Shown: in pieces, positions 325 through 58,670 of the stretch | How positions within the stretch are numbered: position 1 is the stretch's first letter | Layout of the letters: each line of letters begins with the position of its first letter | From: Lama guanicoe | Taxonomy: Eukaryota | Reading direction: 5' to 3' | Assembly: GCA_013239625.1 (NCBI GenBank) | Contig: MU053597.1 | Location: forward strand, 1,664 to 65,663 | DNA length: 64,000 nt | Translations under genes and position numbers: made by a program | Notes under the pieces: model-generated | What the model was told of the DNA's origin: nothing | Seen by the model: only the letters and a program-made list of their open reading frames with translations | Database searches by the model: none

Positions 325-539
325 CTGTTCCTCCTGTCTCTGCTGTCTACGACATTGTTTTTACGTGACAGCAACTCCTGCACTTCACGCCTGTAACCTA
401 AATATGCGGCTCTGTGGAACTCCTTCAGCTCACCACTGTGGACGTAATACCCAGGCACGGAGTTCTCACGATTCCTGAGCTCTCTCAGATGGATGGTGAA
501 GCCCACCCATCTCGCTAACTTAACAAGTCCCTTCTTCAT
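325..539 (-). CDS. First coding exon of an ANKRD26/POTE/ANKRD7-family ankyrin-repeat gene; continues beyond the left edge
   Basis: ATG at 539, open frame MKKGLVK...PGYYVHSGELKEFHRAAYLGYRREVQELLSRKNNVVDSRDRRN, ending AAC AG|GTAAC (donor 323-324). Matches recalled ANKRD26 exon 1 (MKK...[44 protein letters not shown]|T) including the intron position. The exact paralogue cannot be assigned. Confidence 0.85.
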
Positions 540-589
540 CTGGCTTATCGCCTTCCGACACCGCTCACTTCCCTCCTGGCCTCTTGCCG

Positions 590-740
590 CCTTCCGGTCT
601 CAGCGCGGGCGCTACAGAAGAGCCACAGAGGTCTCGCTGCCACACCTTGGCTGCGAAGCTCAGCGGCTTGGAATGTTTGGTTCGGAACACTCGTGGCCTA
701 GCAACAGCACTGACCCTCAACTGTCCCTCAACTGTCCCTC
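590..740 (-). promoter_or_regulatory. Putative promoter/5'UTR of the ankyrin gene
   Basis: Local CpG enrichment upstream of the ATG; RFX-like GTGGCCTAGCAAC (693-705); ETS core CTTCCGG (591-597). Confidence 0.45.
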
Positions 741-2327
741 CAGAGCCAGTGTCCCTGTGAGCGCGCACAGAGGTCCGGAGGCCCAATGTGCCCAGTGAGC
801 ATATGGGAGCCTAAGGCATTTCAAATCTCTGCAATTGCTTGTGGGCCATTTTGGATTCCCTTCAAATGTTGGTGCTAGGTGGCCGAGTGTTTCAGGGTAT
901 TTCCTGAAGTGAGGCTTGCCCCTGAGAAAGCCATGTTTGTATGCAACTGTGGTTACAGTGGGGTGGAACCACAGGATGCTGAAGGCCCAGTCCCCCAGAG
1001 AGCTCCCCACCAGACATCTCTACATCGCCTTATCCCTCCGTTCATTCCTTTCCACATCCCTCTGGGCCCCAGCCAGTCTCCAGGGAATTTAGTGGATGCA
1101 AACAGCAGAAAGCTGTTTTCATGGTTTCAGAGACTGTGGCAATATGTCTCATTAAGTACAAACTTGAGAAACCAATACACGCTCTCCAGAAGAAATGAAA
1201 ATGTGTTTCCCCACGTCTGCTGACCCTGCTCTGTGGCTCAGCCTTATGTTTACACGCTTTCTTCACTTCGTTTCATTTTTTGCTTTTATTTCCAACCAGT
1301 TAAGTCTTTATAATCAACCCAAGGTTTATTTGGGAACATGGTATATAACATTTGAGAATTTTTAATCACATAACACTATGAAGACACCATGTCAGTTACT
1401 CAGCGAGGCCAGGCTGCTGGCTGACCACTTGCAGGAGGGGCGGAAGGCAGGTCAGGCCTCTTCTTCCTGCCCACCTCCATCCTTCCTCCCTCAGCTGGCT
1501 AATTATGGCTTCCGGCCCTGCCAGGATCAAAACTGCAGGGGGCGGCAGAGTTCCTAAGTGGCTGACACTCCTGGGAGCTGGTCTTGAGCGGACTGGACCT
1601 GGCAAGTGTTTTGAAGCTGACTCTCTCAGGGGCATTTCTGGGCCCACACCTGCCCTCACCTGCAACTCCCCTGACCTAAGTGAATGTGGTGTTACTAATT
1701 GACCCTTTTAACCTATCTTTTCTATTAGCATACACCGTCATTTCCCTCATCGTAATAAAAAAAAAAAAAAAAAAAGATGCGTCCACCCTCCAGCTGCAGC
1801 CCCATCTCTCTGCTCTCCGGCACACACGCCCCCTGCCCCTGCAAGGGAGCTCTTCCCATTCGCTTCCTCTGATTCCTCTCATTTTCCATCCAAGCAAACG
1901 TGTCCACTCCCTGCAACTGCTCACGACAGGGTCCCCCACCACCCACCAGGTGCTCACTTCACGGGGAGCTCTCAGTCCTCTCCTCGCACGGCCCGGCAGC
2001 CACGCTTCCCACTGTTGCTCTCCCCGACTTCCTCAAGCCCTTTCCTCACGGGGCTTCCCAGCTCTCAGGCTGCTCTGGTTTCCTCCCACGGCCCTGGCCA
2101 CTCTTCTCAGTCCCAGCCCGAGTGCTGGCACACAGCACCCCTGAGGCTCAGTCTTCCGGCCTCTGCTACTTTCTCCTGCCACCCCCACCAGCCTTAGGGC
2201 TTTATGTATTCTCGACGAGTTCACAACTTCCAAACTGCTATTTCCAATCCAGACCTCCCTCCTGTATTCCAGACTCAAATACCCACTGCCTCTCAACGTC
2301 ATCTCTTGGAAGTTTAACAGGACTTCT

Positions 2328-2622
2328 CCTGGGCCGGCCCTCTCCTGGTCCTGCCCTCACCTCGTCCTGCCCTCTCCTGTTTCTGCGCTCACTTGGGTCT
2401 GCCCTCAGGTTTGTCTGCCCACCCCTGGGCCTGCCCTCTTCTGGTCCTTCCCTCTCCTGGTCCTACCCTGTATCTACTTGGCCTCCCCTCACATGGCCTG
2501 CCCGCATCTGGGCCTCCCCTCTCATGGGGCTGCACCCTACTGGGCCTACCCTCACCTGGGCCTGTCATGTCCTTTGCCTGCCCTACCCTGGGCCTGCCCT
2601 CTCCTCTTCTTGCCCTCTCTCT
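2328..2622. repeat. Degenerate ~16-bp minisatellite (CCTGGGCCTGCCCTCT/A)
   Basis: About 18 diverged units visible by eye; explains the Pro/Leu-rich spurious ORFs here. Confidence 0.8.
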
Positions 2623-2625
2623 CCG

Positions 2626-4183: not shown

Positions 4184-4537
4184 GTGTGTTACAAGCCCAT
4201 ATTGACAAGGTCTATGAACGATTTGGATTTACTTCTGGGGTTTTTTAACTCATATATAGCTAACTTGCATTTTCCCCAAATTCATTTTTGCTTACTAACC
4301 CTACCCTACATACCCTTATGATTTACTTCATCAAAAGCAATCACTTAAGCATTGTACGCGGGCATGTTTGTGGCCTGTATTCTCAAAGGCTGCCAAGCAC
4401 GACACATCAGGAAATGAGTGTACACCTGACCCAGGGCCACACCAACTCATCTACTGCCCTGTGCCACAACCACAGCAGGAGGCACCATAAAATCTACAAA
4501 ATTCTTCTGCCAGCTCTGAGCTGACAACAGTACTTAC

Positions 4538-4674
4538 GGGTTCCGGGGGCCTTGTGCCAGCCAGGGGAGCGCACACATGCGGCGCTGTTGCACCGGCCAG
4601 GGGCGGGGTCCAGCCAACGTCCCCGCTGTTTGGCGGACTGTACACTTGGACATTTTTGGCCAGTCCTCTCACCA
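4538..4674 (-). pseudogene. COL12A1: COL12A1 FN3 exon remnant (second of three)
   Basis: TTTTCTCAG|TG GTG AGA...GAA CCC|GTAAGT; VRGLAKNVQVYSPPNSGDVGW...APLAGTRPPEP vs recalled [47 protein letters not shown]. Confidence 0.92.
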
Positions 4675-5882
4675 CTGAGAAAAGAAAAGGCAACACATAT
4701 TTCTTATGTCTATTTACACATGTCAAGCTATCACTTATCCCGAACTTCTGCTCTGTAGTAGGAGAAATACTGACTTCCTTAAACTTTGGATTATCTACAC
4801 ACAAAAGCAGATGACAACTCTCCAAATACAAATTTAGCCAAACTTAGCCAACTAGGGCCTTGGTCTCTACGGGAGCTAAGTTGGTGCCAATAAAAACAAG
4901 CTAGTAAAGGCAGTAGTACTGGGTTGGCCATAAAAGGACAAGGGACAAGGGCAAGAAATCAGAAAAGAAGCTTCAGCTTTCCAGCACAGGTCATGGAGAG
5001 AGAGACAAGAGGATTCTATCATCTCCACCTCTAAATGAGAACTGACAACACCGAGGACTTCCATCTAATCTGGGCGGCTAGGTTAGACGGTTTCAATCAT
5101 TCATTTTTTCTCATTCAACAGACAGACACTGAATGTCTTCTGTGATTAAAGGAAAAGGCAAAGAATGAGAAATTAAAGATACACTCAGTTCTCAATTAAC
5201 TACCCAAGTAGGGACTTAGAAAGACATGCAAATTAAATCCATGTATTAACCCCAAACTCCAGTTTAGCCAATAACATCATTTTTCTAGACTACTAACCTT
5301 TTGCCAAGAGAAGTCATCCACACTTGCTTTCTTTTAGCCATCAGCACGTGTATTTTTAAGCCAAAAAAAACTTTAGAGGTATGCACCAAAGCCTTTAAAC
5401 AATACTACGAAGAACTGTAAAACCACTCTGAACTGGTTTCTCAACATGTTAACAGCAAATGAAAGCACACAGATTTTCAACGCCAAAAGTACTTCATCAG
5501 CAAATAGAGAAATGTGCTATCAGGTAATGTGACCAATAGATTTCAACAACTGACACTGAAAGCCAGTGACAAAATACTGCTTCACATAAATTTATCAAGC
5601 ACAAAACAAAACCCATTAAAACTTTTGTCGGTCAAAGAGAATACTCATAACTGTATACACACAAATCCTGAGGTTATCATTTCAGAAGAATGTCATAAAT
5701 TTTTTATTTCATACACTAAAATATTAACTGATGAGGGTTGGGAGGTAAACTATGGGCAATTGTTACATTTTTCTTCCATCATTATGAATGTCCCTAATTT
5801 TCTTTAACAGGCCTATATGGCCTTTATACTGAAAAGCAAAACGCCTCATGAAAAAACTAAAATTTTCTGCCTTCTTACTTCC

Positions 5883-5955
5883 ATGTCCTTCCAGTGTCTG
5901 CTGTACGCTCTCCATCGCCCTCAGTATAAACGGGAACCACTGTAACGGTGTATGG
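5883..5955 (-). pseudogene. COL12A1: COL12A1 FN3 exon remnant (first of three, 5'-truncated)
   Basis: [24 protein letters not shown] vs recalled [24 protein letters not shown]; donor GT>GG; truncated by the junction to GC-rich ADGRB1-derived DNA. Confidence 0.92.
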
Positions 5956-8379
5956 AGAGGAGGGGTCAGATCAGGAGAGGCCAGGCAGGGGCCACTGGCT
6001 CAGAGGACAGACTGACCCCGAGGCCTAGACATGACCCTGGTCACACACTGAGCCTTGATCTGCATCACAGACTGACTTTTGATCCTGGACACAGGGTGCC
6101 TGGCTCCCATCACAGACAAGCCCTGATCCAGGTCACAGACTGCACCCCGATCTTGGCTGCACTTCCATCACAGAGGGGCACTCAGCGAGTGGTGGCTGCT
6201 CCCCATCTCGTACTGAGCCCTGATCCAGGTCACAGGTTGCCCCGACCTTGGCCGCGCTCCCACCACGGAGGGGCACTCAGCGAGCGGTGGCTTCTATTTC
6301 TGTTATCGTTGTTGTACCTTTAACGTTGTGTCCCACTCACAGTTGACCCGACAAATGATATTCAGGCCAATGCACCTACAACCGGGGGAGTCCCCGCAAG
6401 GACTCCTGGGGCCCGCAGTGCTCAGCAGAGGCTCCCAGGACCCCCTTTGCTGGGTGGCCACAGGGCTCCTGGGCTGGGTGGGCTGTGAGGGGGCAGCAGA
6501 GGAGTGGACAAGGCTATGGGGTGGGCTGCCCCTCCAGGCCCAGAAAGAAGCAGCCATTCTTCCCTGGCTCAATGCCCCCTCTGTCTGGAAGCCTCGTTTA
6601 CGTCTCATTACAGGATGAATAGAGCCAATTAATGGTGGCCAGGCAGCCTTGGCCACCCAGGAGAGATGGCACATGGTGAGAGGGCTCCCAGCTTCCTTCC
6701 ACCCTGGCGCCCCAGCCTGGAGGCTGTGGCCTCCCTGGTCCCTGTGGCCCCAGTGGGCCGGGATGAGGGCCCTGGGAGAGACCCGCATCCTGCTAGGCCT
6801 TCCTACTCCCTGGGCAGAGCTCTCCCCAGCACAGCAGGTGGGGCAGCAGAGGCAGTGGGGCAACCCCTGTCCATTCCTGCCCTGCCCTCACCCACCAGGC
6901 TGGTTCCCCAGGCATCCAGGGCGTGGTCCAGGGACTCTGAATTTATGGCTTGTCCTGGGGCATGGGAGTTCCTCCTCAGCCCCTTGTGTGGATGTCCAAA
7001 TGAGGACCACAGGGGACAGGACAGCTCTCTTAATTCCCCCACCAAGTCCCCAGTCCCTCCCACCCCAGCACCCATGGGTCCTGACTTGGCCCATCTGGCC
7101 AGGGGTAGGAAAATGCACAAAAGACTACCATAAGAGGGAGAGGGACACAGAACTGAGAGGCCGGGGGAGCAGGAGGGCAGCTGCAGAGGGGCCCCCGGGT
7201 AGGGGTGGAGATGGAGGAGAGGGGACAGTTGCTCTGGCCAGAGAAACACTTGCCAGACAGACATGTGATGTGGCCACGTGGCATTTGGACAGGCCGGGTG
7301 GTGGCAGGGCTAAAAACAGGCCACGTGTTGGCCTGGGCCTCTCTTGCTGACTCCCAGCTTGGCTGGGGATGGAGGAACACAGGTGACACAGCCTCCCCTA
7401 GGCAGTGTGAGGGGCGAAGCTCCCTGGCACAGGCTCAGACAGCAAGAACTGGGACAAGCACCTGCCTAGCTCAGCTGTGTGTCTTCTGAATGACTGCTGG
7501 ACCTCTCTAGTCTGCATGCCACCCCACCCTGACACACATGCGTGTACACACACACACACACACACACACACTCTCTCCCAGTAGAGTGCTGGGCAGGAGA
7601 CACCCCAGGTGGGACCACCAGCTGACAAGAGCTGACTCTTACCTCTGTCTCTCCTTACAAGCTGTGTGGCCTTGACTGCTGTTTAACCTCTCTGTCCCTC
7701 ATTCCACTACATAAGTATTAATGCAGGCCTGCTGTGTACCGGGTTTCATCAGCCAGCAGGGCAAACTTCCCTGCCCTGTTGGGGGTACATCGTGGAAGAA
7801 CAGAGAATAAGGACACGGGAATTATCCAGTGTTCACAGGCGATGCCATGTGGGAAGAGAAAAAGACACGGCATACAGTGAGAATGCGGCTGGGGCTGCTG
7901 CCACTTGAAGCAGCATGGTCAGGGGCTCAGGGCAGCCAGGGTGCAAGCAAGCTGAGGGAAGGGGCCCCGTGGGCATGTGGGGAAGAGTGTTTCAGCGTGG
8001 GGAACAGCCCATGCAAAGGCCCTGTGCAGGTGGCCACCTGGCTGGGGAGCCAACCCCCGGGCTGCTGGGAGGAGTAAACTGGTTAACAGGTGGTGTTTCC
8101 TGCACAAAGGAGACACTCAGACGCAGCTGCTGTCACCACCACCAAGATGATTTTCATTCCCAAGGTCTCAGAGCATCAAGGCCTTCGGAGTCTCGGGCAC
8201 ACGCATGGGGGTCTGAGCTGACCCTGGGCCCGGGTGACCATGTCCTGTCCTGCAGCCAAGCTCCCCACTTCACACTGTGGCAGCCCCAGCCCTCAGGCCC
8301 TGTGAGCCGTCTTCCTCCAAGGCCCCCAGCCCTGCCACACAGCTCTGACACGTGCTTTGTCACAACTACTGAAATCAGC

Positions 8380-8720
8380 CTACACACGTACTCATACACA
8401 GTGGACACGAGTACCTCCCACGCTCACACACATGCACAGAAGAACCCAATGAACACGTGCACATACCGACATGCTGGAAGGGGGCAGTCATGACCATGTG
8501 CACACACGTGCCCCATGCACTGCACACATGCAAACACACCCCTTGAGCACACAATATATGCTGGCAATGCACATGTGAATGCACACACACATGCCGTGTA
8601 CACGCACAACAGTACTTGTAAACATGGATGCGTGAAGACAGACATGCTTGCACAACACACAGCACACACACACACACGTGGATGCAGGAGCACAAGTACG
8701 TGCACACACACACACACAGG
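8380..8720. repeat. CA-rich low-complexity tract; a pure (CA)n also lies at ~7546-7571
   Basis: Repeated CACACATG/CACACACG units. Confidence 0.85.
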
Positions 8721-10431
8721 CACAGTTCTGCCCGCCCCCTTCCAGCACCACTCCCCAGCATTCCCATTCTCAGAATCTCTGCGCGCGGCCATGGTACCCA
8801 TCCCCATCTCCTAACCTCCCTCTCCCTGCCCCAGCCCTCCAGATTCCCTACCAGATAATGAACAAAGATACAGGCGACTTTTCATCAGTAACACTGCTTA
8901 GAAACAATCTCATTCCTCAAACAAGGAAAAAGATGTTTTTACTCTCAGTTTTAAAGACGAGGGGTCTGAGGGGATGGAGGAGCTGATGGGTTGGGCCCAG
9001 GGACACTCACTGTGTGCGTGCGTCAGGTCAGGCTATGCCCCAGCCAAGGTCACAGTGACCTCTACCTTGCCCAGCCCGAACAGCCCTGGGGGCCTGATCC
9101 CTGATGGGAGATGGGAATTTTCTGATGTGTCCTCGATGCCACACCTGCACCCCCTTCCCGGGGCTCTGGCCACCTCTTCCCTCCTCTCCTGATCCTCTCC
9201 GTCACCTTGCTGCTTCACAGACCCTTCTAATCTGGGGTCCTCAGCCTGGGCCATCAGTAGAAACAGGTCCAGGATAACCAGCTTCCTTTGTGACCCCACT
9301 TAGCTTATTCTGTGCCTCTACAGAGGCTATTCTGTGGAACCCATCAGTGCCACTGGCTCAGGAGAGGCCAAGGGCCCTGGACCATGTCATCTGGCCCTGT
9401 GACGGCCAGGAAGCATGAACGCCCAAGCCTAGCCTGGCACCTGCTGCCCTCCCTGCCCTGGCTAAGGCTCCGGCCTCCTGCAACATCCTGGGCTTTCTGC
9501 AAAGGGGGGCTCCCCACCTGCCCTGCTGCCATGGAGGCCCGGCCGGGGTCCCAGCCCACTGCTCATGCCCTCCTGTAGGGGTGGCCTTCTCACCAAGGAA
9601 ACCAAATGCTAAAAAGACAGACTGCCCCAGCCCCTCCTTGCTGGGACCCGCCCAGCACACAAGTATCCCCGCCTTTGCCTCTGACACCCACAGGGCTTGC
9701 CTACACCTCTTCCAGAATCTTGAACATGGCCCCCTGAACAAGACAGCCATTGACTCCAGATGACACACAGCAGGGACACTCCGACACCAGGGAACCTCCC
9801 CCCTTCACCTGACCCCTGCTTCTTGTGTTTGGCTGTTAACACCTTCCCCCTCCCCCGACCCAGAAGGCAGCTCCAGGACACAAAGGGCTTTCCTTCTGCC
9901 TCTTCACTGCACCTCGTCCCTGGCACCAGAACACTTCACAAGCACTGGGGAACTAGCTGCTTGGTAAGGATTTGTGCAGCCACAACACGTGCAAACCCCA
10001 AAGGACATCTCCTGACCACACTTCCCGACAGCCCACTCTCATTTTTTCTCCCAAGCCCCAGGAGGCCCCTGCAGACCCTGGCCACAGGCCACAGGCCACA
10101 GGCCACGGCAGCCTGCTGGCCCATCAGAATCATCCTACCTGCAAAAGAGGAGGGACCTTTGCCCAGCCGGAAATGAAACACTCCCTTATACCAGGAGAAA
10201 CCAGACCATCCTTCCCTGCACACTCAGCAAGCACCTCCCAGTGTGCCGCACCACGCCTGGCCCTGGGGGCCGAAGGCAGGCACCCCAGGTCCCTATTCTC
10301 ACAGTGCAACTGGCTTCCCCGACGGAGCCCTCAGGGACGGGTGGCCAGGCCACGCCTGAAGAGGACACCCTCTCCCCCTTGCCCTCTGCCCAGAGGGCTG
10401 CCCCCTGGGCCTCTCCCCACCGGTCACTCAC

Positions 10432-11240
10432 CTGGGGCGCATCCCCGCCCCGGTCCTGGGTCAGGCTGGTGAGGCAGTTCTCAGGGCCACCAGCCACGTC
10501 TCTGCAGCTGCGGTTGCCCGTGACCAGGTGCTCCACGGAGAGGTCGTTGTTGGGGTGGGAGGGCCCCACTCTAGGGCCTGCAGTCACTGTCTTGGGGAGG
10601 CTGCTGTCCCTTCATCTGCAGGAACTGCCTGCTGGCCTGCAGGAAGGCCAGGGGCCCCAAAGGGTCACAGAGCCTCAGCACCTCATCACAGCTCTCCCTG
10701 CCCAGGTAGGTGCGCACGGACTCCAGGAAGGAGTCGAACTGGTAGTGTGGATGTGGGCGGGGCTGCTGCAGGCGGTGCCTTGGCCACCCCCATGTAGAGC
10801 TTGTGCTGGTGCGGGTCTGGGTTGCGTAGCATCCAGGAGCAGCGTGAGGTGCTGGAAAGGAACTCAGCAGCCGCCAAGAAGTACCTGAAGAACCTGCCCT
10901 GCATCAGCATGGGACACGGCTCAGCCCCAGGAACGTCTGCCCCCGAGGACACACAAGCCTGGTGTCCCAGAAGCAGCAACAGCAGCGGATGGAAAATCCA
11001 AAGGGCGCCCGGGGCAGCGCCTGGCCCTTCATCCTAGCTGGAGGGGCTGCCGGGGTTCCACAGGCTGGGCAGGAAGGCACGGGCCAGGCCTTGGCATGCC
11101 AGAATGCAGAGGCAAGGCTAGGGCTAGGTCACAGAGACTGAGCCGAGGCAGGAGGAAGAGAGGGCTTCAGATGACCAAGGGGGCAGCACTGACTCCTAAC
11201 ATCCGGGGCCCGGATGCTGGCCTGGGGCTGCCAGCAGCGG
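10432..11240 (-). pseudogene. ADGRB1: ADGRB1 (BAI1) first coding exon, pseudogene copy 1
   Basis: Acceptor TTTCTCTTTCAG|11240, ATG 11032 (MKGQA then -1 frameshift), [64 protein letters not shown], donor CAG|GTGAGT; several frameshifts and an internal deletion. Confidence 0.95.
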
Positions 11241-12665
11241 CTGAAAGAGAAACCAGAAGAGGGGACTGTGAGCACCATGGGGAAGCTGGGATTCGGGCAT
11301 GCTGGGGGCAGTGCCCACCCCGAGCTTGGGGCCCTGACACAGGCTCTGGCCCTGCTCTCAAGCACCTGCTCTGTGCACCTGTCTGCCATCTGCCAGTGTT
11401 GTTCACCTGCAAGGGCAGGGGGTGACAGGAAGCCAGGGGCCTGGCATACCCTCTCCCACCTAGGCCTGGGTGGGAGCAGTGGGCAGCCCAGACCAGGGCC
11501 ACAGGCAACAGTAGCCTTGGCTGTGCCCATCTGGACGGACAGACTGGCATGGCCCCATGGGCTCTGGGCCTGCCTGCAAGCCCCATGGTGGCCATGGGGG
11601 TCATTACCATTCTGGGCCTCTGTGGCCTCTCTGACCTTACCCCTCCCCAACCCCATCTTTCAGGGAAGGATCTACAAACCCAGCCAGAGGAGATGCAGAA
11701 CAGTGGGGCAGAGGAGAAAGGTCATTCCAGGCATCTCCCAGCCTCCCTGCAGCCCCACTCTCTGAACCTGAGCCCATGTCAGTGCAGAGACCCCTCCCAC
11801 CTCTGCCTCCTCACATCAAGAGTGGCCTATTTTTTGGAGGATGAGGATGGGGTCAGACCTCAGTCTCTGGCTGTGACTTGGACATCCAACTGCCTCCTCT
11901 CTGCCCCACCCACCCTGCTGCCTGTCACATGGCCCCTCAGGTGCCCCCCTTCAGTCCCCCACCTGCACTCCTGCTAGGACGCTCCCTTCCTCCCTTAACC
12001 CCTCCAGACTCTCCTGGAGCTAAAGCCTGGACCCACCACTGCCTCCTGCTTTGGCCAGGCTGGCACTGTTACCCTTCCCCCATTTCAAGGTGAAAAAACT
12101 GAGGCTCAGACAGGGTCACAGTGAGGAGGCGGGAGTACCCACCCCTGAACTCACAGACTGACCCCAATCTCATGACCCTGGGATGGCCTGCCCTGCTCAG
12201 GGAAAGGGTGCTGTCCGTGTGCCACCCGCTCACACCCAGGGGAGGGGGCGCTCCTGGCCCAGGTGAGTGGGGATGCAGCAGAGCTGTCCTGGCCTCAGGA
12301 AGCCAGCACCACCCACCCTGGACTTGCCCCCACGTGAATCCTGGGAATTTCCTTCTGCCTCTAACTTCAGTTTTCCCACCCTTCCTAAAGCCCCTGGCTG
12401 GCCATCGCCCCACGCAGAGCTAGGCCACTGGGTGGAGAAGGGAGACTGAAGTCTGCACCCCAGTGCCCGCCCGGCCTCCTGGTGCCAGCACCTCTGCTCT
12501 GCTGTCCGTGCACATGCCGGCCTCCTGCCCACAGGGACTCATTGCTTCTTGCTGCCTGGGCCCAGCAGTGACCCAAGGTCGGTCACTGTTCTGCAGCCCC
12601 CTCCTGGCGTCCTTCCTGACAGGTCTTCTAGGCACAGCAGGAGCTGAGCGTGGGTGGCCTCCTGG

Positions 12666-32857: not shown

Positions 32858-32879
32858 ATTTCCCCCGAATTGCTGAGGC

Positions 32880-40844: not shown

Positions 40845-40985
40845 CTGGGCACTGCTGCAGGAAGCAGTCTCGAGTTTCCACTTAGTGGCCCTGGCACTCG
40901 GCGCCCCTGTACCAAGGCCCGTTGCACATCCATGTGCACTGCTGCCGGCCCAGGGAGCAGCTGGCGGAGCATGGGCTCCAACTTG
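40845..40985 (-). pseudogene. ADGRB1: ADGRB1 TSR4 exon remnant, 5'-truncated
   Basis: [51 protein letters not shown] vs recalled [46 protein letters not shown]; TAA at 40882-40884. Confidence 0.95.
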
Positions 40986-46800: not shown

Positions 46801-49039
46801 TCAGCTGCTAAAATACCCATTATTTCAGGGCTCGTTACCGTGGTGACCCAGGTGGTGAGGATGTGGTGGGAGGAGGCGGTGGAGAGGAGGGAGGGGTCAG
46901 ATCAGGAGAGGCCTGGCAGGAGGCCACCGGCTCAGAGGACAGACTACCCCCGAGCCTAGACATGAACCTGGTCACACACTGAGCCCTGATCTTCATCACA
47001 GGCTGACTTCTGATCCTGGACACAGGGTGCCTGGCCCCAATAACACACAAGCCCTGATCCTGGTCACAAACCACCCCCCGACCTTGGCCAAGCTTCCACC
47101 ACAGAGGGACACTCAACTACTGGTGGCTGCTCCGCATCACGTATGGACCCCTGACCTTGGCTGTGCTCCCCTCACAGAGGGACAAGCAGCGAATCGTGGC
47201 TTCTACTTGTTATCACTTTTATATCTTTAACGTGTGTCCCACTCACAGCTGACACCTGACAAATGTTATTCAGACTAATGCATCCACAATGGAGGACTGT
47301 CCATAAGGACTCCTGGGGCCCACAGTGCTGGGCAGAGGCTCTCAGGATCCCCTTTGCTGGGTGGCCACAGGGCTCCTGGGCTGGGTGGGCTATGAGGGGG
47401 CAGCAGACAAGTGGGCAAGGCTGGGGGGTGAGCTGCCCCTCCAGGCCCAGAAGGAAGCAGCCATTCTTCCCTGGCTCAATGCCCCCTCTGTCTGGAAGCC
47501 TCGTTTACGTCTCATTACTGGATTAACAGAGCCAACTAATGGTGGCCAGGCAGCCTTGGCCACCCAGGAGAGAGGGTACATGGCGAGGGGGTTCCCAGCA
47601 TCCATCCTACCCTGGCACCCCAGCCTGGAGGCTGTGGCCTCCCTGGTCCCTGTGGGCCGGGATGAGGGCCCTGGGAGAGGCCCGCATCCTGCTGGGCCTC
47701 CCTTCCTCCTGGGGAGAGCTCTCCCCAGCCCAGCAGGTGGGGCAGCAGAGGCAGTGGGTCAGCCCCTGTCCATTCCTGCCCTGCCCTCGCCCAGGACTGT
47801 TGCCCAGGCATTCAGGGCGTGCTCCAGGGCCTCTGAAGTTAGGGCTTGTCCTGGGGCATGGGAGTTCCTCCTCAGCCCCTTGCATGGATGTCCAAATGAG
47901 GACCACAGGGGACAGGACAGCTCTCTTAATTCCCCCACCAAGTTCCCAGTCCCTCCCATCCCAGCACTCATGGGTCCTGACTTGGCCCATTTGGCCAAGG
48001 GTAGGAAAATGCACAAAAGACTACCATAAGAGAGAGAGGGATGCAGAACTGAGAGGCCGGGGGAGCGGGAGGCCAGCTGCAGAGGTGTTGCCAGGCGGGG
48101 ACAGAAGTGGACGACAGAGGACAGTTGCTCTGGCCCAAGAAACACTTTCCAGCCAGATGCCTGATGTGGCCATTTGGCATTTGGACAGGCCAGGCGGGGG
48201 CAGAGCTGAAAACGGCCCACGTGTTGGCCTGGGCCTCCTGACGACTCCTAGCTGGGCTATGGATGGAGGGATAGAGGTGAACCAGCCTCCCCTAACCACT
48301 GCGAGGGGCGAAGTTCCCTGGCACAGGCTTAGCTGGCAAAATCTGGGATGAGCACCTGCCTGGCTCAGCTGTGTGTCTTCTGAATGACTGCTGGACCTCT
48401 CTGGTCTGCATGCCACCGCACCGACACACATGCGTACACACACACTCCCCCTCCCAGTAGAGCACGGTGCAGGAGACACCACAGGTGGCACCACCAGGTG
48501 ACAAGAGCTGGCCCTGCCCACTGTCTTCCCCCTACAAGCTGTGTGACCCTGGCTCCTGCCTTAACCTCCCTTTGCCTCATTCCACTACGTAGGTATTAAT
48601 CCAGGGCCTCCTGTGTGCCGGGTTTCATCAGCCAGCGGGGGAAACTCCTCTGCCCTGTTGGGGACTACATCATGGCAGGACGAAGAATAAGTATACAGGA
48701 ATTACCCAGTGCTCACAGGCGATGCCATGTAGGAGGAGAAAGAGACAGGATGCAGTGAGACTGCGGCTGGGGCTGCTGCCACTTGAAGCAGCATGGTCAG
48801 AGGGGTCAGGGTGGCCAGGGCACGACAAGCTGAGGGAGAGGCCCTGTGGGTGTGCCAGCCCAGGGGACAGCCTGTGCAAAGGCCCTGCACAGGTGGCCGC
48901 CTCGCTGAGGAGACATCCCCGGGCTGCTGGGAGGAATAAACTGGTTGACAGGTGGTGCTTCCTGCACAAAGAGACACTCAGATGCGGCTGCTGTCACCAC
49001 CACCAAGATCTTTACTCCCAAGGTCTCAGAGCATTAAGG
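43813..49039. repeat. Complex near-identical tandem duplication: ~2.4 kb unit twice, plus a ~280-bp templated insert
   Basis: 43927-46623 vs 46625-49039 (offset 2699, then 2416); 45075-45354 is a copy of ~43813-44092. Confidence 0.95.
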
Positions 49040-50847
49040 CCTTTGGAGTCCGGGGCACGCGCACGGGGGTTTGAGCTGCCTCTGGGCCGGGTGGCCGCGT
49101 CCTGTCCTGCAGCCAAGCTCCCTGCTTCACATCATGGCAGCCCCAGCCCACAGGCCCTGTGAGCCGTCTTCCCTCAAGGGACTGAGCCCTGCCACACAGC
49201 CTCAACACGCGCTTTGTCACAACTGCTGAAATCGGCCTACACACGCACTCACACACGGTGCATGTGAGTACCTCCCACGCTCACACACATGCACAGAAGA
49301 ACGCAATGCACACACACATACGCTGACATGCTGTAAGGGGGCAGGTGTGACCATGTGCACACACATGCGCCATGCACTGAACACATGCACACACACCCCG
49401 TGTGCACACTCCACCCTGAAGGAAGGAGGAAAGCTGCCCCAGCCAAGGTGGCAGTGACCTCCACCTTGCCCAGCCTGAAGATCTGCCCTCAGGCCTCCCA
49501 CCCCAGCGCTGGGGGCCCTGAAACACGGATGCCCTGAAAATCGGGATTTTCTCATGTGTCCTGGATGCCACACCTGCACCCTCTTCCCGGGGTTCTGGCC
49601 ACCTCTTCCCTCCTCTCCTGATCCTCTCCAGCACCTCGCTGCTTCAACACGTTTCTACTCTGGGGTACTCGGACAGGGGCCATGAATAGAAACAGCTCCA
49701 GGATAACCAGCCTCCTCTCTAACCCCACTTAGGCTATTCTGTGCCTCTACAGGTGCTACTCTGTGGCATCCATGAGTGCCACTGGCTCAGGACCACATCA
49801 CCTGCTCCCGTGATGACCTGCTGCCAGGAAAGCCCAGCCCAGACTGGCCCCTGTTGCCCTCCCTGCCCTGGCTAAGGCCGCAGCCTCCCGCAACATCCTG
49901 GGCTTCCTGCAAAGGGGGGTTCCCCTCCAAGTGTCTGCAGGTCTCCCTACCTGTCCTGCTGCCATGGAGGCCCAACCAGGGTCCCAGTCCACTGATTATG
50001 CCCTCCTGCACAGGTTTCCCGCTCACCAAGAAAACCAAACTGCTAAGAAGGTGGACTGTGCCCCAGCCCCTCCTTGCTGGGACCCGCCCAGGACACTGGT
50101 TCAACCGCCTTTCCCTCTGACGGCCACAAGGCTTGCCCGCACCTCTTCCAGAATCTTAAAAACAGGTCCCTGACCAAGTCAGCCCAACTCCAGATGACAT
50201 GCAGTCCCGACACCAGGGACCCCCTCACCCTGCACCTGACACCTGCTTCTTGTGTTTGGGTGTTAGTGCCTCCTCCCTCCCCTGACCTGGAAGGCAGCAC
50301 CAGGACACAAAGGACTTTCCTTGTGCCTCTTCACTGCTCCTCGTCCCTGGAGCAGAACACCTCACAGGAGCTGGGGAACTAGCTGTAGGATAAGGATTTG
50401 TGCGGCCACAACACATGCAACCCCCAAACTGCATCTCCTGACCACACATCCTGACAGCCCAGTCTCCTCATTTTGCCCCCGTGTCCCAGGAGGCCCCTGT
50501 AGACCCTGGCCACAGGCCACAGCAGCCTGCTGGCCTGTCAGAATCGTCCTACCTGCAGAAGAGGAGGGGCCTTCCCCCAGCCAGAAATGAAAAGATCCCT
50601 CATCCTGGGAGAAACCAGACCCATCCTGCCCTGAACACTCAGCAAGCACCTCCCAGAGTGCTGGCACCACGCCTGGCCCTGGGGCCACAGGCAGGCACTC
50701 CAGGCAGGTTCCTATTCTCACAGTGCAACCGGCTTCCCCGATGGAGCCCTGAGGGATGGGTGGCCAGGGTAGGCCTGAAGAGACCCTCTCCCCACTGCCC
50801 TCTGCCCAGGGGGCTGCCACATGGGCCTGTCCCCAACAGTCACTCAC

Positions 50848-51669
50848 CTGGAGCGCATCCCCGCCCTGGTCCTGGGTCAGGCTGGTGAGGCAGTTCTCAG
50901 GGCCGCCAGCGACATCACTGGGGTTGTGGCTGCCCATGACCAGGTGCTCCACGGAGAAGTTGTCGCTGGGGTGGGAGGGCCTCACCCTGGGGCCTGATGT
51001 CATCGTCCGGTGGCAGCTGTCTCTTGATCTGCAGGAACTGCCTGCTGGCCTGCAGGAAGGCTAGGGGACCCGAGGAATTGCACACCTTCAGCACCTCATC
51101 ACAGCTCTCCAGGCCCAAGTAGCTGGGTGTGGACTCCAGGAAGGATTCCAACTGGTAGATGCGGACACGGGAGGGCCTGCTGCAGGTGGGCACCTTGGCC
51201 ACCTTCATGCAGAGCTTGTAGCGGAGCAGGTCCAGGTTGCACGGAGTCCAGGAGGAGTGCAAGGCGTTGGCAGAGAACTCAGCGGCTGCCGAGAAGTACC
51301 CGAAGAACTTGCCCTGCACCAGCATGGGGCACGGCCCACCAAAGGACGCACATCCATCTCCGAAGCCACACTTGGCTGGGGCCCAAGCAGCAGCAGCAGC
51401 AGATGGAAAACCCACAGGGCGCCCGGGGCAGCGGCCTGGCCCCTCATCCTAGCTGGTGGGGCCGCCAGGGTTCCACAGGCTGAGCAGGAAGGCGTGGGCC
51501 AGGCCTTGACATGCCAGGGTCCAGCGGTGAGTAGGGCCAGGCTGGGCTCGGGCCAGGCTGCAGAGCTCTGAGCGGAGGTAGGAAGAAGAGAGGGCTTCAG
51601 GCGACCAAGGAGCAGCAGTGGCTCCTAACATCCGGGGCCTGGATGCCAGCCTGGGGCTGCCAGCAGCAC
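50848..51669 (-). pseudogene. ADGRB1: ADGRB1 (BAI1) first coding exon, pseudogene copy 2
   Basis: Acceptor TTTTCTCTTCCAG|51669; ATG 51447 [22 protein letters not shown]; after a frameshift [20 protein letters not shown]...[34 protein letters not shown]; then [25 protein letters not shown]; donor CAG|GTGAGT. Confidence 0.97.
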
Positions 51670-54008
51670 CTGGAAGAGAAAGCAGAAGAGAGGACTGTGA
51701 ACCCTGTGCGGATGTTGGGACTCGAGTATACTGAGGGCAGTGCTACCCCGAACTTGGGGCCCTGACACAGGCCCTGGGCCCTGCTCTCATGCACTTGCTC
51801 TATTCACCTGTCTGTCACCTGCCAATGTGTTCATCTGCAGGGGCGGGAGGGGCAGGAAGTCAGGGGCCCGGGCATGTCCTTTCCCACCTAGGCCTGGGTG
51901 AGAGTAGTGGGCAGCCCAGGCCAGCGCCACAGGCCACGTGGGCCTCAGATGTGCTCATCTGGACGGACAGACTGGCACGGCCCCTCTGCTCTGGGCCTGC
52001 CTGCAAGCCCCGTGGTGACCATGGGGGTCACTCCCATTCTAGGCCTCTGTGGCCTCTCTGACCTCACCCCTCCCCAGCCCCATCTTTCAGGGAAGGATCT
52101 GTAAACCCAGCCAGAGGGGATGCAGCACAGGGGAGCAGAGGAGAAAGCTCATTCCAGCCATCCCACAGCCTCCCTGCAGCCCTGTTCTCTGACCCTCAGC
52201 CCATGTGGGTGCAAACTCCCCTCCCATCTCTGCCTACTCACATAAAAAGATGACCTATTCTTTGGGGGATGAAGGCAGCGTCAGACCCCGGTCTCTGGCT
52301 GTGACACAGAACTGCCTCCTCTTGGCGCCCCCCTACCCTGCTCCCTATCACAGGGCCACACAGGTGCCCACATCAGCCTCCCATCTGTACTCCTGCCAAA
52401 AAGCTCCCTTCCTCCTTTATGCCCCACCCAGATTCTCCTGCAGCCACTGGGTCCAGGCTTCTGCCTGGACTGACTCCTGCATCCTGCCTTGGTCAGGTCG
52501 GCAAGGTTGCCCTTCCGCCATTTCATGGGGAGGAAACGGAGGCTCAGGCGAAGTCACAGTAAGGAAGGTGGAGTACCCACACCAAACCCCACAGATTGAC
52601 CCAGAACTCGTGACCCTGGGGTCACCTGCCCTGCTCCAGGAGAGGGTGCCGGCTGTGTGACACCCACTCACACCCAGGGGAGGGGGGCAGCTCCTGGTCC
52701 AGGTGAGCGGGGCGCAGCACAGCTGTCCTGGCCTCAGGAAGCCAGCACCACCCTTCCTGGACTTGTCCCCACGTGAACCCTGTGAAGTTCCTTCTGCCTC
52801 CAAGCCTCAGTTTTCCTACCCTTCCCAAAGCCCCTGGCCGTCCATTACCCCACACAGCAACGAGGCCAGTAGGCGGAGGCGGGACACTGCAGTCTGTGCC
52901 CCAGAGCTGGCCCGGCCTCCTAGTGTTGGCACCGCTGCACTCTGGACCATGCACACACTGGCCTGCCCACAGGGACTCCTTGCTTCTTGCTGCCTGGGCC
53001 TAGCTGGCCAGCAACATAAGGTCAGCCACTGCTCCACAGTCCCCTCCTGGCGTCCATCCTAACAGGTCTGTAGGCACGGCAAGAGCTGGGCGTGGCCAGC
53101 CTCCGGCTCTGGGCCAACCACCAACCAGGCCAGGACGGCTGGACTTGGGCTGACCCTCTCATGGCTCCGTGGACTCGGGCCCGGCCCTCACCTCCCAGCC
53201 TTGGTGTCCCCATCTGTAAGGTGGGAGTTAGGCTTCACGCACTCAACATAAGCGTAAGAGCTATACCTGCTGGTTTACCCAGAGAGGGGACCCCAGGGGG
53301 AGAAAGGCTGTTTGGGGATGATGGGTCACTGGGGGCGGCCCTGTGGGGGCTCTTCAGTGGCAAATGTTCATGTTCTCTGAGAAGGCAACTTGCAAATTGC
53401 TCATGCTGCCCCTCTGAGCAGCACTGGGCACACTTGCACTTGACCCCTATCACTGGGAAGCCCGTTCTCCTGCCCTGCCTCTGGACCACTCAGGGGACAG
53501 TCTTGGTGGTGGGCAGAGCTACCTGCTCTGCCCTCCTAATCAGTATCTGGGGACAGAGACTGGGGCCAAGGTCCCACAGCGAATCTCACACCTGGCAAGG
53601 AGCTCACCCAGCAGGGTGGCAGTGGGACCTGAAATCTCACCTGAGCCTCAGCACCAGCTGCAGCACGCCCTTCCCTGTGCCCAACTTGGTACCTAATGCA
53701 GTCACCAGCCCCCACCCCAGGGCCCCAGCCCCGGAACAGACCCTCTTGGATGTCCTGGAAAACCTCAGTAGAAAGTCAAATCACAGTCCAGTGCCTTTCT
53801 CACCACCACCCTACGTGACAGCTGCTTCACTCTGTCCTGTCCCCATTGACCAGGGGGGGTCAAGGCTATTTCAAAACCCAGCACCACCCCCCCGAGGGGC
53901 TTGTATAGTCTGAGATGGTCAAGGCTGGGCCCACACTCTCCCCTCCTCATTCCAGCCCCTGACAGCCCACACCACAGCCCTCCTGTCTGGAATCTTCGAA
54001 TTTGGTGC

Positions 54009-54135
54009 GGCAGGTAATTAGCTTTGTTTGTTTGTATGCTTGTTTGTTTTTTATGTTAATGGAGATACTAGGCCTTGAACCCAGGACCTCGTGGGTGGTA
54101 AGTACGCACTGAACCACTCAGCTATCAGCCTCTCC
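54009..54135 (-). mobile_element. tRNA-derived SINE, camelid Vic-1-like
   Basis: Reverse strand GATAGCTGAGTGGTTCAG...GAGGTCCTGGGTTCAAG...AAACAAAGCTAATTACCT. Confidence 0.8.
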
Positions 54136-56030
54136 CAGTCCCTTTGGAGTTTTGACGTTTTTTGGTTTTATGACATTTATCTCACTACTTTCAGGAAATC
54201 TTTAGGAAAACCTATTTAATCAGGAATTTAGTTGAGTCTAGTACCTGAGAATGTGCTTTACTAAGATAACTGTATTCGAATTCATCAGTGACAACAGGAC
54301 AGCGCCTGGAATCAACGTGAATGAAAGTGGCAGTCATTTACAGAAACGCACAAGGACAGTACGAGGCCAAGCGTCCATCGACCACGGGTCTATGCACATG
54401 CCTGTCCACGATTCTCAAAGTCCCTGAAGAACAAAAATGGCCATGATCACCTTTGACCCTTCCTCTTTTCTATCTTTATTCCTCACATGTTGTTTCACTT
54501 TTCTTCCTCCTCTGTTCTCCATGTTTATATTCATTTAACACAAATGGGTTAGAGAACCACTTTATCTGCTTATGGCCCATGTTAACCCCTTGGTGGAGGC
54601 GCATCGGGGCAGTCTGCATCTCAACTAAGGTCACGGCCGCACCTGCAGTCAGCGGGCAGCTCGGCTGGGGCTGACTCACGTGTCTGCTGCTTGGCGCTGG
54701 CTCTAGGCGGATCCCCATCTCTTCGGCAAGCTAGCCTGGCCCTCTTCATACGGTGGAGGAAGAGTTCCCAACAGCAAGACGCTTTTTGTGAGTCCATGTA
54801 GGGGAGGACTGCACGAAGGACCACAAAGACAATGAGTTATTCGTCACTTACTGAGGGTTATGACTGTCATCGACCACACATGATATTCAAGACTTGAGAT
54901 AGCATTCCTACCACACACCTACTCTTCTTCTTGAGTTGTTAACCCTCCGTTCTTTAGACCAGCATTTTCCATAGGGTATTAAGAAGTTTGGTAGGGGGTA
55001 TCTTTGAAATAATCATTGATTTCTTACCCCCACATATTTCTTGCCTCTATCTTTCTCCCTGTCTTAAGCTGTCTTAAGAGACACATCATTTCCTCAGAGA
55101 ACAGAAGTTACTGAAGAATATGAGGAATAACAGAGCTGTGTGCTGCCTATGAAGTTTAAACACTCAGTTTTGTAGGAAACAAAAACAATTCATGGCAGAA
55201 AGATTTAGGTGGGAATCTCATGCGGAAAGCCCAGAACAATGAGGTGTACAGGACATGGGCACCATTTCCTGCATAGAAAACAAGAGGAATCAGGAAGCCC
55301 TCACATAACAGCTAACTCGCATCTCTAAGACCGAGCCTGGTAGAGCCACACAACTTTCTGCACCTCAACATGGAACAGATCAGGGAAACGATTCCATCAA
55401 TCTGAGAATGGTAGGGGAGGAATAAAGTCACTGGATTTGATCAGACAGATCTCAGCAACACCTGCGCAGGCCGGCTCCCCAGGACCAGACAGCAACTAGG
55501 ACAGCTCAGCAGGCGCCCAGTGTACACAGATGACACAGAGGGCCAGGGAAGCGTCATTCCACATCCCACCACCTCCTAACTCTCTGGCAGTAGAAGACTC
55601 CAAAGCACAGACACACTCATGGAGAAAATGGAGAGACCTAGCATTGCAACAGATTTGGGAACAAAGAATTAAGCTGTAAATCAAGTGAGTTATTTAAAAT
55701 TATAGACCAGCACCCATCTTACAGATATCAGTTTGTAGACAGACTGGCCCAACTATATGGAATTCGTGGTCCATGCCTTATTTTCCTAGAAAGGGTTCCA
55801 CGGTCAAATAGGTTTGAGAAATGCTGTATTTTCCTTTTGGACATCAAAATGCACATTAACATACTGATGTCTTAGGGAAGAATCAGAGTAAAGAAACCCA
55901 GTATTTTCTCCATGATTTGACCTGGGAGATTCTTTTGAAGAAACTCTGTTGATGAATGATCCTGGGAACACATATTAGTCAACACTGCTCTCAATTTATC
56001 TTAAGTCATAGATTTTACTCTTTCACTCAC

Positions 56031-56887
56031 CTACTCAAAAACCTTCACTGAGTTGCCATGGATCTTTAGATTTTCTTTTCAGGGAAATTTCTTTTTTAAG
56101 AGCCTCCACAATGCAGCCTGTCCTAGTCATCAGTTTTCACTATTTCCCTGTGTAGCTCCTTTCCTTGAGCTAGGTCAAACGCTTCACTTTCCTGAACAAG
56201 ACACACTCATGTTTCTAAGTACAATTCTCAACTCCCCTTGGTCTCTATAGACCCACAAACTAGGTGGCCACTTGGGTTCTACTCTCACAGAAATGTCACA
56301 AAGCTGCCCCTGACCATTCCAGCTCAAGTTGGCTGTTCTTTGATAATGCACGAGCAGTTCACCCTGTTAGAAGCTGGTTCCTACGGTGCTTTGCACCATC
56401 AGGAGTTACGCTAGTATGCTCACACACCATTCAACAAAACCAAATTCCTGTGGTAAATGATCGTGTTTGTTAGTTTTATGTTACTTTCAGTGGCTGGCTA
56501 AATGTCTACCCCTAAAAACGGATGAATATGTGCACTTTTCTGAGTGTAGGAACTTTACATACATTGATAACGACTGCAAAGTTTAAAACTAAAGAGGTAG
56601 AACACAGCACACACGGAATTTCAGTGGGGGGCAGTAAGACATCAGTTTCACTAAAGAAGTTTGTTAGCACGTCACAGTATTTACTGTTCACAAGTCCTGG
56701 AATATACTATTTTTATTCATCATGAAAAACATGAGGTATTGGTGTGATATATTCGGGAAGAATTGCATGTGTGTGTGAAATTTCTTTTAAACAGCAACAA
56801 TTCCATAGTTAAAGGGACAAACAACATGGCTGGACTATGCACCTGTCAGTTGTTGAGCCAAGAAAGACATGTTAAAGTCCCTCAAAT
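56031..56887 (-). pseudogene. Gene X copy B exons (56843-56887 and 56031-56511)
   Basis: GAG|ATTTGAGGG..ATG TCT TTC TTG GCT CAA CAA CTG ACA G|GT and TTTTTAG|GGGTAGAC...TGAGTAG|GTGAGT; same boundaries as copy A; many in-frame stops. Confidence 0.6.
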
Positions 56888-57879
56888 CTCAGAAAGAGAT
56901 AAAATACTAGATAAAGAAAAGTTGAAATTCCACTAATTTGTCCAATGCGACGCCTACAGAACATTCTTGCCATGGGAAAATGGTTAATAAATGTTCCTTT
57001 CACCCTCAGGATATTCAAGCACAATACATCATTCAGAAAGCCAATTTACTACTTTTTAGAAAACACCCTTGGAACTGATAAACTGTAAAAAGCCCAAATG
57101 GTCAAACCTAGAATGAATACAAGGCAATTAGACTTTCTGATATCTGTCTTTATCATTGCTGGCAAGATCTGTGTAATCATCAATCAATCAATCAGCACTT
57201 AGTGGTGTAAATAAGGTTAAATATTTTCAAAAGTAAAGCAAACATACTGAGGATGAAAATCTTATTTTATTTATTCCAGAAAGAAAGCTATTCTTAGGCT
57301 ATCTTTATTTGAGAAAACTCATCTTCTCCATGGTCATTAATTACTATGATATATTGAATGGAATATATACATGTTCCATCCAACATATACATACTTACTT
57401 GCTACAAAATATGTATCACACATAAATACATGTATTTACACTCAATTTTATATTCCACAAAAGCAACCTGAAAGAATTTGAAGGATAGAGTACACAGTTG
57501 TACGAAAAGCCACTTTTCAGAACACATTAGGCGATGTCTTTCCTATTTCTCTGTAACTCCTATGCTAGCCAAACAAGCCACTAATCACCCTTAAGATCTG
57601 TAATGAAGGGTGCCTCTGTTTGCTACTTTTATGCTTTTCATGTCCACAACATAATCGGTGCTACGAAGAAACTGATTTCTTTTTGGCTTCGGACCTAAAT
57701 GTCAGTATGCATTTGGTTGGCTTAGCCTTTCCAAGGAATAAAATTATCCCTTCGTCACGTCCGAGAAACTACTAGAAAAGAAAATTGTCAAAGGAAAGCT
57801 ATAATTTCCTATAATGGAAAAAAGAACCTACCTTGTGAGAATGGGAGTTTTTCCAAATTATAAACGAGTGGGATCAGCT

Positions 57880-58670
57880 AGGGGGCGGCGGGGACACAAT
57901 TTTCAGGCCGCGGGAGGGGTGGGGAGCCACAAGGGCTCCAGGGTGCCCCCGGCGCCCACACGGCCGGCGCCCGCCCCGCCAAGGCCCGCGCGGGCTCTCT
58001 CCCCCGCGGGGACCCGGGGCAGCAGCCGTCGCATCCCCCCCCTTCCCGCGCCCCGCGCCCCGCCGCCGCCCACACTCACCTCAGGGGCGCACCCGGCACA
58101 GCCGGCCGTCGGCCTCGTTCCTGCCGAAGCTTCTCAGTGCGGTACTCCCTGCGTGGGCGGGTTCTTCCCCGACGGTCGCAGGGTTGGGGGGGGCGGGGAA
58201 CGGCCGTCACTTGAGCTACGAACCTAAGCGCCGCCTGGTGGCATTTTCCACAGGCCAGCGCCACAGCAGCCGACTTGGGTTCACACAGCCCCCTGCCAAC
58301 CGCAGTTCTTACTGTCTCGCTGAGCCAACAAGCCTGCGCGGAAACAGGAGGGAGCCAAGGTGGGAGACGGCGGCCGGGCAGGGGTGGACGCGAACGCGGT
58401 CCTGCGGGGACTACGCGCATGCGCACCAGCGGGGCGGGACCGCTCCGTGGGGGCCGGCCCCGCCCAGGGGCGCTGGTCCGGCTCAGCCAATCGCGAGCGC
58501 CGGGTATCTCTTGGCGCGGGCGCTTTGAATGGTTCCTGGGCCGCTGAGGCAGCGGCAGGGTGGCCACGCCGCTGCCATTTGGGGAGCTTTTTTGAGACCG
58601 GGAGGGGAACCCGCCCCTCATCCCTTCGCCGGAGCCCCACCCTCGCCCGGCCGAGGGACTGCGGGAAAAA
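57880..58670 (-). promoter_or_regulatory. CpG-island promoter with a first-exon donor on the minus strand
   Basis: Very high CpG density; NRF1 palindrome GCGCATGCGC 58415-58424; GC boxes ~58431 and ~58458; CCAAT ~58487; YY1-like GCCATTT ~58574; donor GAG|GTGAGT with exon end at 58080. Confidence 0.85.

Follow-up and report, generated by a model that had tools for sequence, protein, structure and literature searches.

A 64,000-nucleotide stretch of guanaco (Lama guanicoe) DNA on contig MU053597.1, referred to throughout as the window, carries on its minus strand a patchwork of gene fragments that runs up to the first exon of an ANKRD26-like gene. The explanation that we consider probable is that this patchwork is a mosaic built at the level of DNA in front of an intact ANKRD26-like gene, and that read-through transcription splices borrowed exons onto that gene. 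The ankyrin piece had first been annotated as a fragment and is instead exon 1 of a full-length gene, at which the window ends: the exon and its CpG-rich 5′ end occupy 325..800 on the minus strand, with an internal acceptor at 611, an ATG at 539 and a donor at 325. Its translation matches the alpaca protein XP_072805527.1 at 69 of 71 amino acids (97% identity to the Vicugna pacos protein, 89% to the Camelus bactrianus one), which places the window nearer to alpaca than to camels, and the gene is intact in relatives, where it encodes 1,436 amino acids. The alpaca ANKRD26-like proteins P0001 and P0004 carry the Pfam domains Ank, CCDC144C and DUF3496; the window holds exon 1 alone.

The evidence for splicing comes from gene models of related camelids, so that the cross-block junctions discussed here are known from protein models made by automatic annotation. 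The initial annotation had suggested that transcripts splice through borrowed exons into the ankyrin gene, and such splices do occur in annotated models of four camelid species, but the junction that it listed, 10432>4674, is not the one supported. Among 22 ANKRD26-like models (all seven members of one cluster and 15 of the 21 members of another), 13 begin with native exon 1, two begin internally, and seven have a different 39-residue start. This start maps to 4653-4540 in a collagen-like exon read in a shifted frame, from which the models pass directly to ankyrin exon 2, with 33-36 of 38 residues matching the N-termini of the seven models. One alpaca protein (four accessions, XP_072805530-33), four Bactrian camel models (XP_074206158/59/62/63) and two dromedary models (XP_064336263/74) share it. 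The borrowed exon itself lies at 4538..4674 on the minus strand, has a strong acceptor and an ATG at 4653 that opens the shifted 38-codon frame, and ends in phase 2, matching ankyrin exon 2.

A second set of models adds an exon further upstream. Four of the six members of one cluster, all four from the wild camel (XP_032326993-96), join an ADGRB1-like exon to the collagen-like exon, and three of these four continue into ankyrin exon 1 at the internal acceptor 611, the use of a cryptic exon near 2.6 kb being variable; the frames of those three stop before the ankyrin ATG. The cryptic exon, which we place at 2587..2620 on the minus strand from the wild-camel models (its 3′ end is approximate), sits at the edge of a GC-rich tandem repeat; P0025, P0104 and P0105 map to about 2636-2587, and of the two acceptors the upstream one, 2636, is lost in this genome and 2620 is kept. 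The repeat, at 2325-2620, is a degenerate GC-rich 16-mer array that supplies the cryptic exon in the wild-camel models, and another array, (CCCGC)5.6, forms a run of GC boxes at 291-318, just within ankyrin intron 1. The wild-camel ADGRB1-like exon is 80% identical at the amino acid level to the first of two ADGRB1 copies in the window and 62% to the second, and in a 14-row tree of the AGRB_N segment the camelid models all cluster with copy 1 (95/93), with copy 2 branching apart. The wild-camel junction would thus correspond to 50848>4674 or to a copy found only in Camelus, since the camelid models group with copy 1; the candidate 10432>4674 was rejected for this junction, the upstream exon resembling copy 1 and not copy 2.

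The elements that these models use are retained in the window: three acceptors (4674, 2620 and 611), the donor at 4538, the ATG and the matching phase. Chimeric transcripts are probably made in this animal too. The models are named only “ANKRD26-like” or “ADGRB1(-like)”, and these names do not record a chimeric origin. The junctions are already in RefSeq, unlabelled, and the camelid case is apparently undescribed: the literature found on camelid and alpaca genomes, segmental duplication, ANKRD26 and ADGRB1 does not describe the locus, as far as its accessible text goes.

The mosaic itself bears the marks of copying as DNA. Read 5′ to 3′ on the minus strand, its upstream half consists of a CpG island, gene X copy 1, a block that we call block D, ADGRB1 copy 1 and GC-rich DNA, and its downstream half of gene X copy 2, two VPS8-like blocks, ADGRB1 copy 2, a COL12A1-like block, a gap and ANKRD26-like exon 1. 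A four-gene, minus-strand mosaic had been proposed, and the blocks are present with all identified exons on the minus strand, but the donor count was too low: a VPS8-like donor is a fifth and occurs twice. The sharp GC/AT transitions noted at the block joints are borne out as steps in GC content. The arrangement of gene X followed by ADGRB1, thought to occur twice, is not repeated, because the VPS8-like donor occupies 12.7-22.2 kb and makes the second array gene X, VPS8-like, ADGRB1; in the first array the separate block D, of about 1 kb, stands between gene X copy 1 and ADGRB1 copy 1. Introns are retained and exons are cut midway at three junctions (22152, 12664 and about 5953), which together argue that the pieces were copied as DNA; processed (retro) pseudogenes are ruled out, introns with splice sites separating the exons. 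Intron-bearing contiguous DNA from at least two unrelated genes is tool-identified, namely ADGRB1 (by Pfam and tblastn) and the ANKRD26-like gene, and the remaining blocks are set apart by distinct composition and mid-exon breakpoints. The borrowed blocks have CpG observed/expected (o/e) ratios of 0.24-0.39, and the borrowed pieces are all broken in their donor frames.

Self-BLAST within the window pairs 54975-57857 with 22152-24958 (gene X), 46886-53104 with 5954-12662 (ADGRB1) and 12666-13343 with 19573-20268 (VPS8-like DNA), the paralogous pairs being 83.5-86% identical with Kimura two-parameter (K2P) distances of 0.16-0.19. At a neutral rate near 2e-9 per site per year, such pairs are roughly 35-45 million years old. 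The split of camels and llamas is placed at 11-25 million years ago (PMC13751797), so the duplications would, on this rough reckoning from divergence, predate it. The proposal of a camelid duplication hub is upheld, in that the nearest proteins are from alpaca and camel and copies of the ADGRB1-like exon lie on several camelid contigs.

ADGRB1 copy 1 is an unprocessed pseudogene fragment at 38000..53950 on the minus strand (outer limits approximate, from GC steps), recognized through Pfam, PDB matches to ADGRB3 and tblastn, with exons at 51669-50848, 41017-40845, 40542-40383, 40178-40079, 38723-38618 and from 38398. Copy 2, at 5954..12662 on the same strand, is an older, separate branch found by self-BLAST, Pfam and tblastn, and its exon 11240-10432 is frameshifted. 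Pfam AGRB_N matches copy 1 at E 1e-29 and copy 2 at 6e-13 and 7e-15 in two frames, TSP_1 matches two small exons, and tblastn with horse and goat ADGRB1 places exons at 51.4-50.8, 41.0, 40.5, 40.2, 38.7, 38.4 and 11.0-10.4 kb. Both copies are broken and differ by about 30% of amino acids from true ADGRB1, among whose orthologues identity is 94-100%; copy 2 is 60% identical to copy 1 and 70-71% to true ADGRB1. The first three TSP1 exons and the seven-transmembrane (7TM) region were not found in copy 1 by Pfam or tblastn, and a functional ADGRB1 paralogue, which would have an open frame with AGRB_N, five TSP1 repeats, GAIN and 7TM, was rejected on this ground and on that of the frameshifts and stops. 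Both large exons have donors matching at nine of nine positions. The GC-rich DNA at 24959..37999 (no strand assigned; GC about 0.59, CpG o/e 0.24) is possibly an ADGRB1 intron, and tblastn gave no convincing ADGRB1 exon there.

A search with the ADGRB1 remnant returned 73 matches of at least 183 amino acids, with five short camelid clusters among the top nine; these five clusters hold 21 proteins, of which 18 were mapped by tblastn and one more separately. The ADGRB1-like models sit on two Bactrian camel contigs (71.1 and 32.1 Mb) and two wild-camel contigs (55.7 and 20.3 Mb), and also on dromedary and alpaca contigs, with differing 3′ partners. In six of them block D follows the ADGRB1-like exon; in others the partner is a further ADGRB1-like exon. 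Because the models span several contigs per species and have different 3′ partners, the exon behaves like a mobile hub. The Camelus models P0031, P0023 and P0103 join one ADGRB1-like exon to another, and such splices imply tandem arrays. Some Camelus models derived from these pseudogenes are named plain “ADGRB1”.

How the pieces might work together can be envisioned as follows. Old camelid duplications, introns included, would have accumulated in front of an intact ANKRD26-like gene, leaving pieces that are dead in their donor frames with splice sites that may still be usable. Read-through RNA from upstream would then pick up those borrowed exons that have strong sites, the ADGRB1-like exon joining the collagen-like one. 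By one route the RNA would enter ankyrin exon 1 at 611, giving a long leader rich in upstream ATGs and a normal protein; by the other it would pass straight to ankyrin exon 2, so that the first 72 residues would be replaced by 39 out-of-frame residues. The likeliest outcome is that chimeric RNAs form a minor product with little function and that the main protein comes from the ankyrin gene’s own start.

The second route would alter the protein considerably, since the protein would lose, along with exon 1, its first ankyrin repeat (the Pfam Ank_2 match begins at residue 41, within that exon) and a predicted basic amphipathic membrane-binding helix. The native N-terminus has a hydrophobic moment of 0.57 and a charge of +4, and the borrowed N-terminus has a moment of 0.38-0.39. 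The human ANKRD26 form 78-1710 is reported to fail to bind membranes (bioRxiv 10.1101/2021.05.19.444897), and the swapped isoform, if made, may likewise lack membrane binding. The 38-codon frame is open in all eight sequences (the seven models and the window). Relative to the camel models, the borrowed N-terminus and native exon 1 are about equally diverged (87-89% identical); between alpaca and Bactrian camel the ankyrin repeats show 94% identity. The Bactrian camel accessions of the P0002 cluster form three runs along a single 31.9-Mb contig, which suggests that the ANKRD26-like gene is present there in three nearly identical copies, of which at least one carries the borrowed exon.

Several considerations weigh against this account. 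Every junction rests on automatic gene models of related species, and annotation runs may share RNA-seq data. For 4184-11300, 24 sequencing runs were listed, five of them recorded as RNA from reproductive-system samples with shares of 0.17-0.19 and six with shares of 0.67-0.81; they are given no weight here. The assembly has an N gap separating the collagen-like exon from ankyrin exon 1, and the wild-camel locus may be a paralogue or be differently built, its ADGRB1-like exon being only 80% identical to copy 1. The names COL12A1 and VPS8 are presumptive. At assumed rates, the 38-codon frame would survive neutrally across the camelids in 21-46% of cases. Finally, an ADGRB1 exon followed by the collagen exon holds 12-14 ATGs, of which the useful one is preceded by more than 800 nt, and translation is for this reason disfavoured.

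Nor do the general features of the mosaic speak for selection. The splice sites said to be kept are indeed there, with AG or GT at every coordinate listed, but retention is only marginally above chance: the borrowed exons keep 19 of 20 splice dinucleotides where some 16 would be expected (at 9.5% divergence P = 0.10, and 0.013-0.17 across the values tried). With five donors, co-orientation would arise by chance with P = 1/16, or with P = 1/8 if gene X is set aside, its strand having been called from splice-like signals and a weak skew towards T. Treating all seven junctions as independent would give 1 in 128, a treatment that does not hold, the same donors recurring. None of splice-site retention, open-frame survival or co-orientation was accepted as proof of selection, all being near chance or neutral expectation.

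The question then arises of where read-through RNA would start. A promoter-like CpG island lies at 57870..58670 on the minus strand (CpG o/e 0.84), with a candidate first exon whose donor at 58080 matches eight of nine consensus positions and with housekeeping-type NRF1-, CCAAT-, GC-box- and YY1-like motifs. That chimeric RNAs start at this island is about an even call; no other element upstream in the window is strongly promoter-like. A bolder version holds that everything is one unit, in which the 58-kb promoter, as the real upstream promoter of the ankyrin gene, drives transcription through gene X, ADGRB1 and collagen exons into it; we rate this as possible, if somewhat short of an even prospect. 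The island looks unmethylated amid decayed blocks and has a strong donor, no other strong island occurs upstream of 4674 within the window, the wild-camel upstream exon clusters with copy 1 at 51 kb, just below the promoter (support 95/93), and the single alpaca protein with four accessions would fit several different untranslated ends. On the other side, a foreign-peptide check at a threshold of at least 65% identity found matches to gene X, CpG-exon, VPS8-like or downstream ADGRB1 peptides in none of 43 camelid models, a check that untranslated exons would escape. Transcripts could also terminate near 54.5 kb, within block D, which has an AATAAA at 54480 and forms the last exon at other loci. 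Moreover, the island is not the only promoter-like start, in that ankyrin exon 1 has a CpG-rich 5′ end of its own (o/e 0.69-0.76), and native exon 1 is used in 13 of the 22 models.

Gene X copy 1 (54975..57857, minus strand) is 85% identical over aligned columns to copy 2 (22152..24958, minus strand, from self-BLAST). Its candidate exons, 57877-57832, 56887-56843 and 56511-56428, have AG and GT in place and share one joint frame with a single stop, as do 28% of random segments (P = 0.28); compared with copy 1, the first small exon of copy 2 lacks 4 nt. Neither Pfam, PDB nor a representative protein search gave gene X a name, the last returning two matches, one an unnamed frame that crosses intron and exon alike and one of low complexity; a stretch homologous to gene X occurs in unnamed records. 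A gene X-ADGRB1 fusion protein was rejected, as no ATG of the modelled chain yields one and the longest frame is a 136-amino-acid ADGRB1 remnant. Block D (53950..54974, minus strand), with exon starts at 54808 and 54423, was delimited by tblastn of six models (P0024, P0098-P0101 and P0026) and by its acceptor; in these models it forms the last exon or exons behind ADGRB1-like exons at other camelid loci. It is mildly CpG-rich (o/e 0.61). Beyond the island, 59040-62000 comprises a GC-rich kilobase and then AT-rich DNA with reversed A/T skew, including near 61.6 kb what we take to be an L1-like piece, and may be another block or an opposite-strand unit.

It is unlikely, in our judgement, that the mosaic is an inert fossil and the chimeric models mere by-products of annotation, arising from misplaced paralogue reads or rare noise. 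Several Camelus ADGRB1-like copies (four sequences, 95-98% identical in amino acids) would invite mis-mapping, the borrowed exons are all broken, and splice-site retention is near neutral expectation. Against this, an identical junction recurs in three species, with alternative use of the cryptic exon in a fourth, and a collagen-to-ankyrin junction would be hard to invent by cross-mapping because the joined sequences are not alike. The annotation of a borrowed exon on an intact gene in three species argues that the mosaic is more than a fossil.

At the opposite extreme, the alternative N-terminus, with a borrowed promoter and an ADGRB1 core duplicon that seeds chimeric transcripts at several loci, might have been gained before the split of camels and llamas and be translated and selected as a non-membrane form, a counterpart of the truncation in acute myeloid leukaemia (AML); this too we regard as improbable. 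Core duplicons of the primate type are transcribed segments copied to several chromosomes, with recent high-identity expansion and positive selection.

That an assembler joined unlinked pieces, as the two N gaps and the 100%-identical repeats at 28.3-29.3 and 43.8-49.0 kb might hint, is very improbable, given that the blocks diverge by 14-17% from their paralogues, that the junctions are base-sharp and away from gaps, and that models on contigs of 20-40 Mb from other camelids repeat the order ADGRB1-like exon, collagen-like exon, cryptic exon, ankyrin exon 1. The assembly is nonetheless imperfect, because of those gaps (4007-4183 and 13578-13749) and repeats (28294-29303 and 43814-49039, by self-BLAST). 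Within ADGRB1 copy 1, 43814-49039 consists of shuffled repeats of 0.2-1.3 kb, 99.7-100% identical, reflecting either very young duplication or mis-assembly. A 486-bp exact direct repeat and a 242-bp tandem pair at 98%, at 28294-29303 and 16903-17389, are possible assembly overlaps.

The remaining blocks bear names that are our own attributions. The COL12A1-like block (4184..5953, minus strand), drawn from translations and splice sites, holds the whole exon 4674-4538 and a 5′-cut exon piece, 5952-5883, that has lost its donor; we take it to derive from COL12A1 over two consecutive exons, a presumptive name that no tool confirmed and that found no support in Pfam, PDB, Atlas, paper text or a homologue search limited to proteins of up to 2,000 amino acids. 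VPS8-like block 1 (13750..22151, minus strand) is drawn from translations, its junction and a weak Atlas lead from a paralogous exon; its exon 22151-22046 has its 5′ end cut by the gene X junction, and exon 19651-19562 holds a stop. Block 2 (12666..13343, minus strand; 86% identical to 19573-20268) has an exon from 12744 that is cut at the ADGRB1 junction. VPS8 is again a name that we presume over two consecutive exons, no tool having confirmed it: Atlas gave a weak lead to Vps8, Vps39 and clathrin-repeat clusters with scores all under 0.9, and Pfam, PDB (one designed protein only) and paper text gave no confirmation. At 54060-54125 and 18310-18420 are copies of a tRNA-derived short interspersed element, of a family that we presume to be camelid-specific; insertions at 25640-26110 and 32350-32830 have the appearance of long terminal repeats and are possible cryptic promoters.

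The best-known examples of interspersed mosaic duplications supplying exons to genes come from primates. Tandem clusters are given as the usual mammalian duplication pattern in a survey of cattle (PMC2796684), and the window offers a candidate non-primate mosaic, apparently a camelid case of duplication-driven exon accretion, old enough for comparison across four species. It allows one to test whether a borrowed, frame-shifted exon can be retained as an N-terminus and how an ANKRD26-type protein behaves once its membrane helix is gone. Caution is also in order with several camelid models named “ADGRB1” or “ANKRD26”, which are chimeras built of pseudogene exons.

Within the ANKRD26 family, the comparison in a duplication context is reportedly POTE. 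ANKRD26 relatives are described as gathering at duplicated mammalian breakpoints (PMC4141111) and the family as over-expanded in primates and artiodactyls (PMC4141111, PMC2796684). The guanaco locus is similar in placing an ANKRD26-like gene in a duplication-rich patchwork, but those reports, as far as their accessible text goes, concern copy number and position, whereas the change here is the gain of a 5′ exon. The main text of a paper on the goat ANKRD26 family does not mention camel, alpaca, COL12A1, VPS8 or BAI1.

In alpaca, pseudogene-rich repetitive blocks (NEK10, ATF5, FMN2 and others) on chromosomes 11, 17 and 36 are reported to be absent from Camelus assemblies (PMC13751797). They resemble the present case as clustered gene fragments in a camelid genome and differ from it in that the mosaic here is shared with Camelus; “ANKRD” is not mentioned in the accessible text on those blocks (PMC13751797). 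In human disease, WAC joins ANKRD26 at exon 10 in a fusion whose protein is described as unstable (PMC8056752). The predicted camelid form shares with that fusion and with the AML form 78-1710 the removal of the helix and the first repeat, whether through a foreign upstream exon or promoter or through loss of the N-terminus. Both of these are, however, disease alleles of the true gene; the camelid change occurs lineage-wide, in a paralogue, with a junction to exon 2 and an ATG supplied by the borrowed exon.

The closest counterparts are the chimeric genes and pseudogenes of human segmental duplications, such as ANAPC1P2 and HYDIN2 (PMC13122177). As described there, these likewise join intron-bearing pieces of at least two genes as DNA and yield spliced chimeric RNA, possibly with a borrowed 5′ end, a kind of splice seen here in gene models. 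Unlike the human chimeras, the mosaic is camelid, much older (K2P about 0.17) and drawn from at least five donors, and its acceptor is an intact coding gene that retains its own exon 1.

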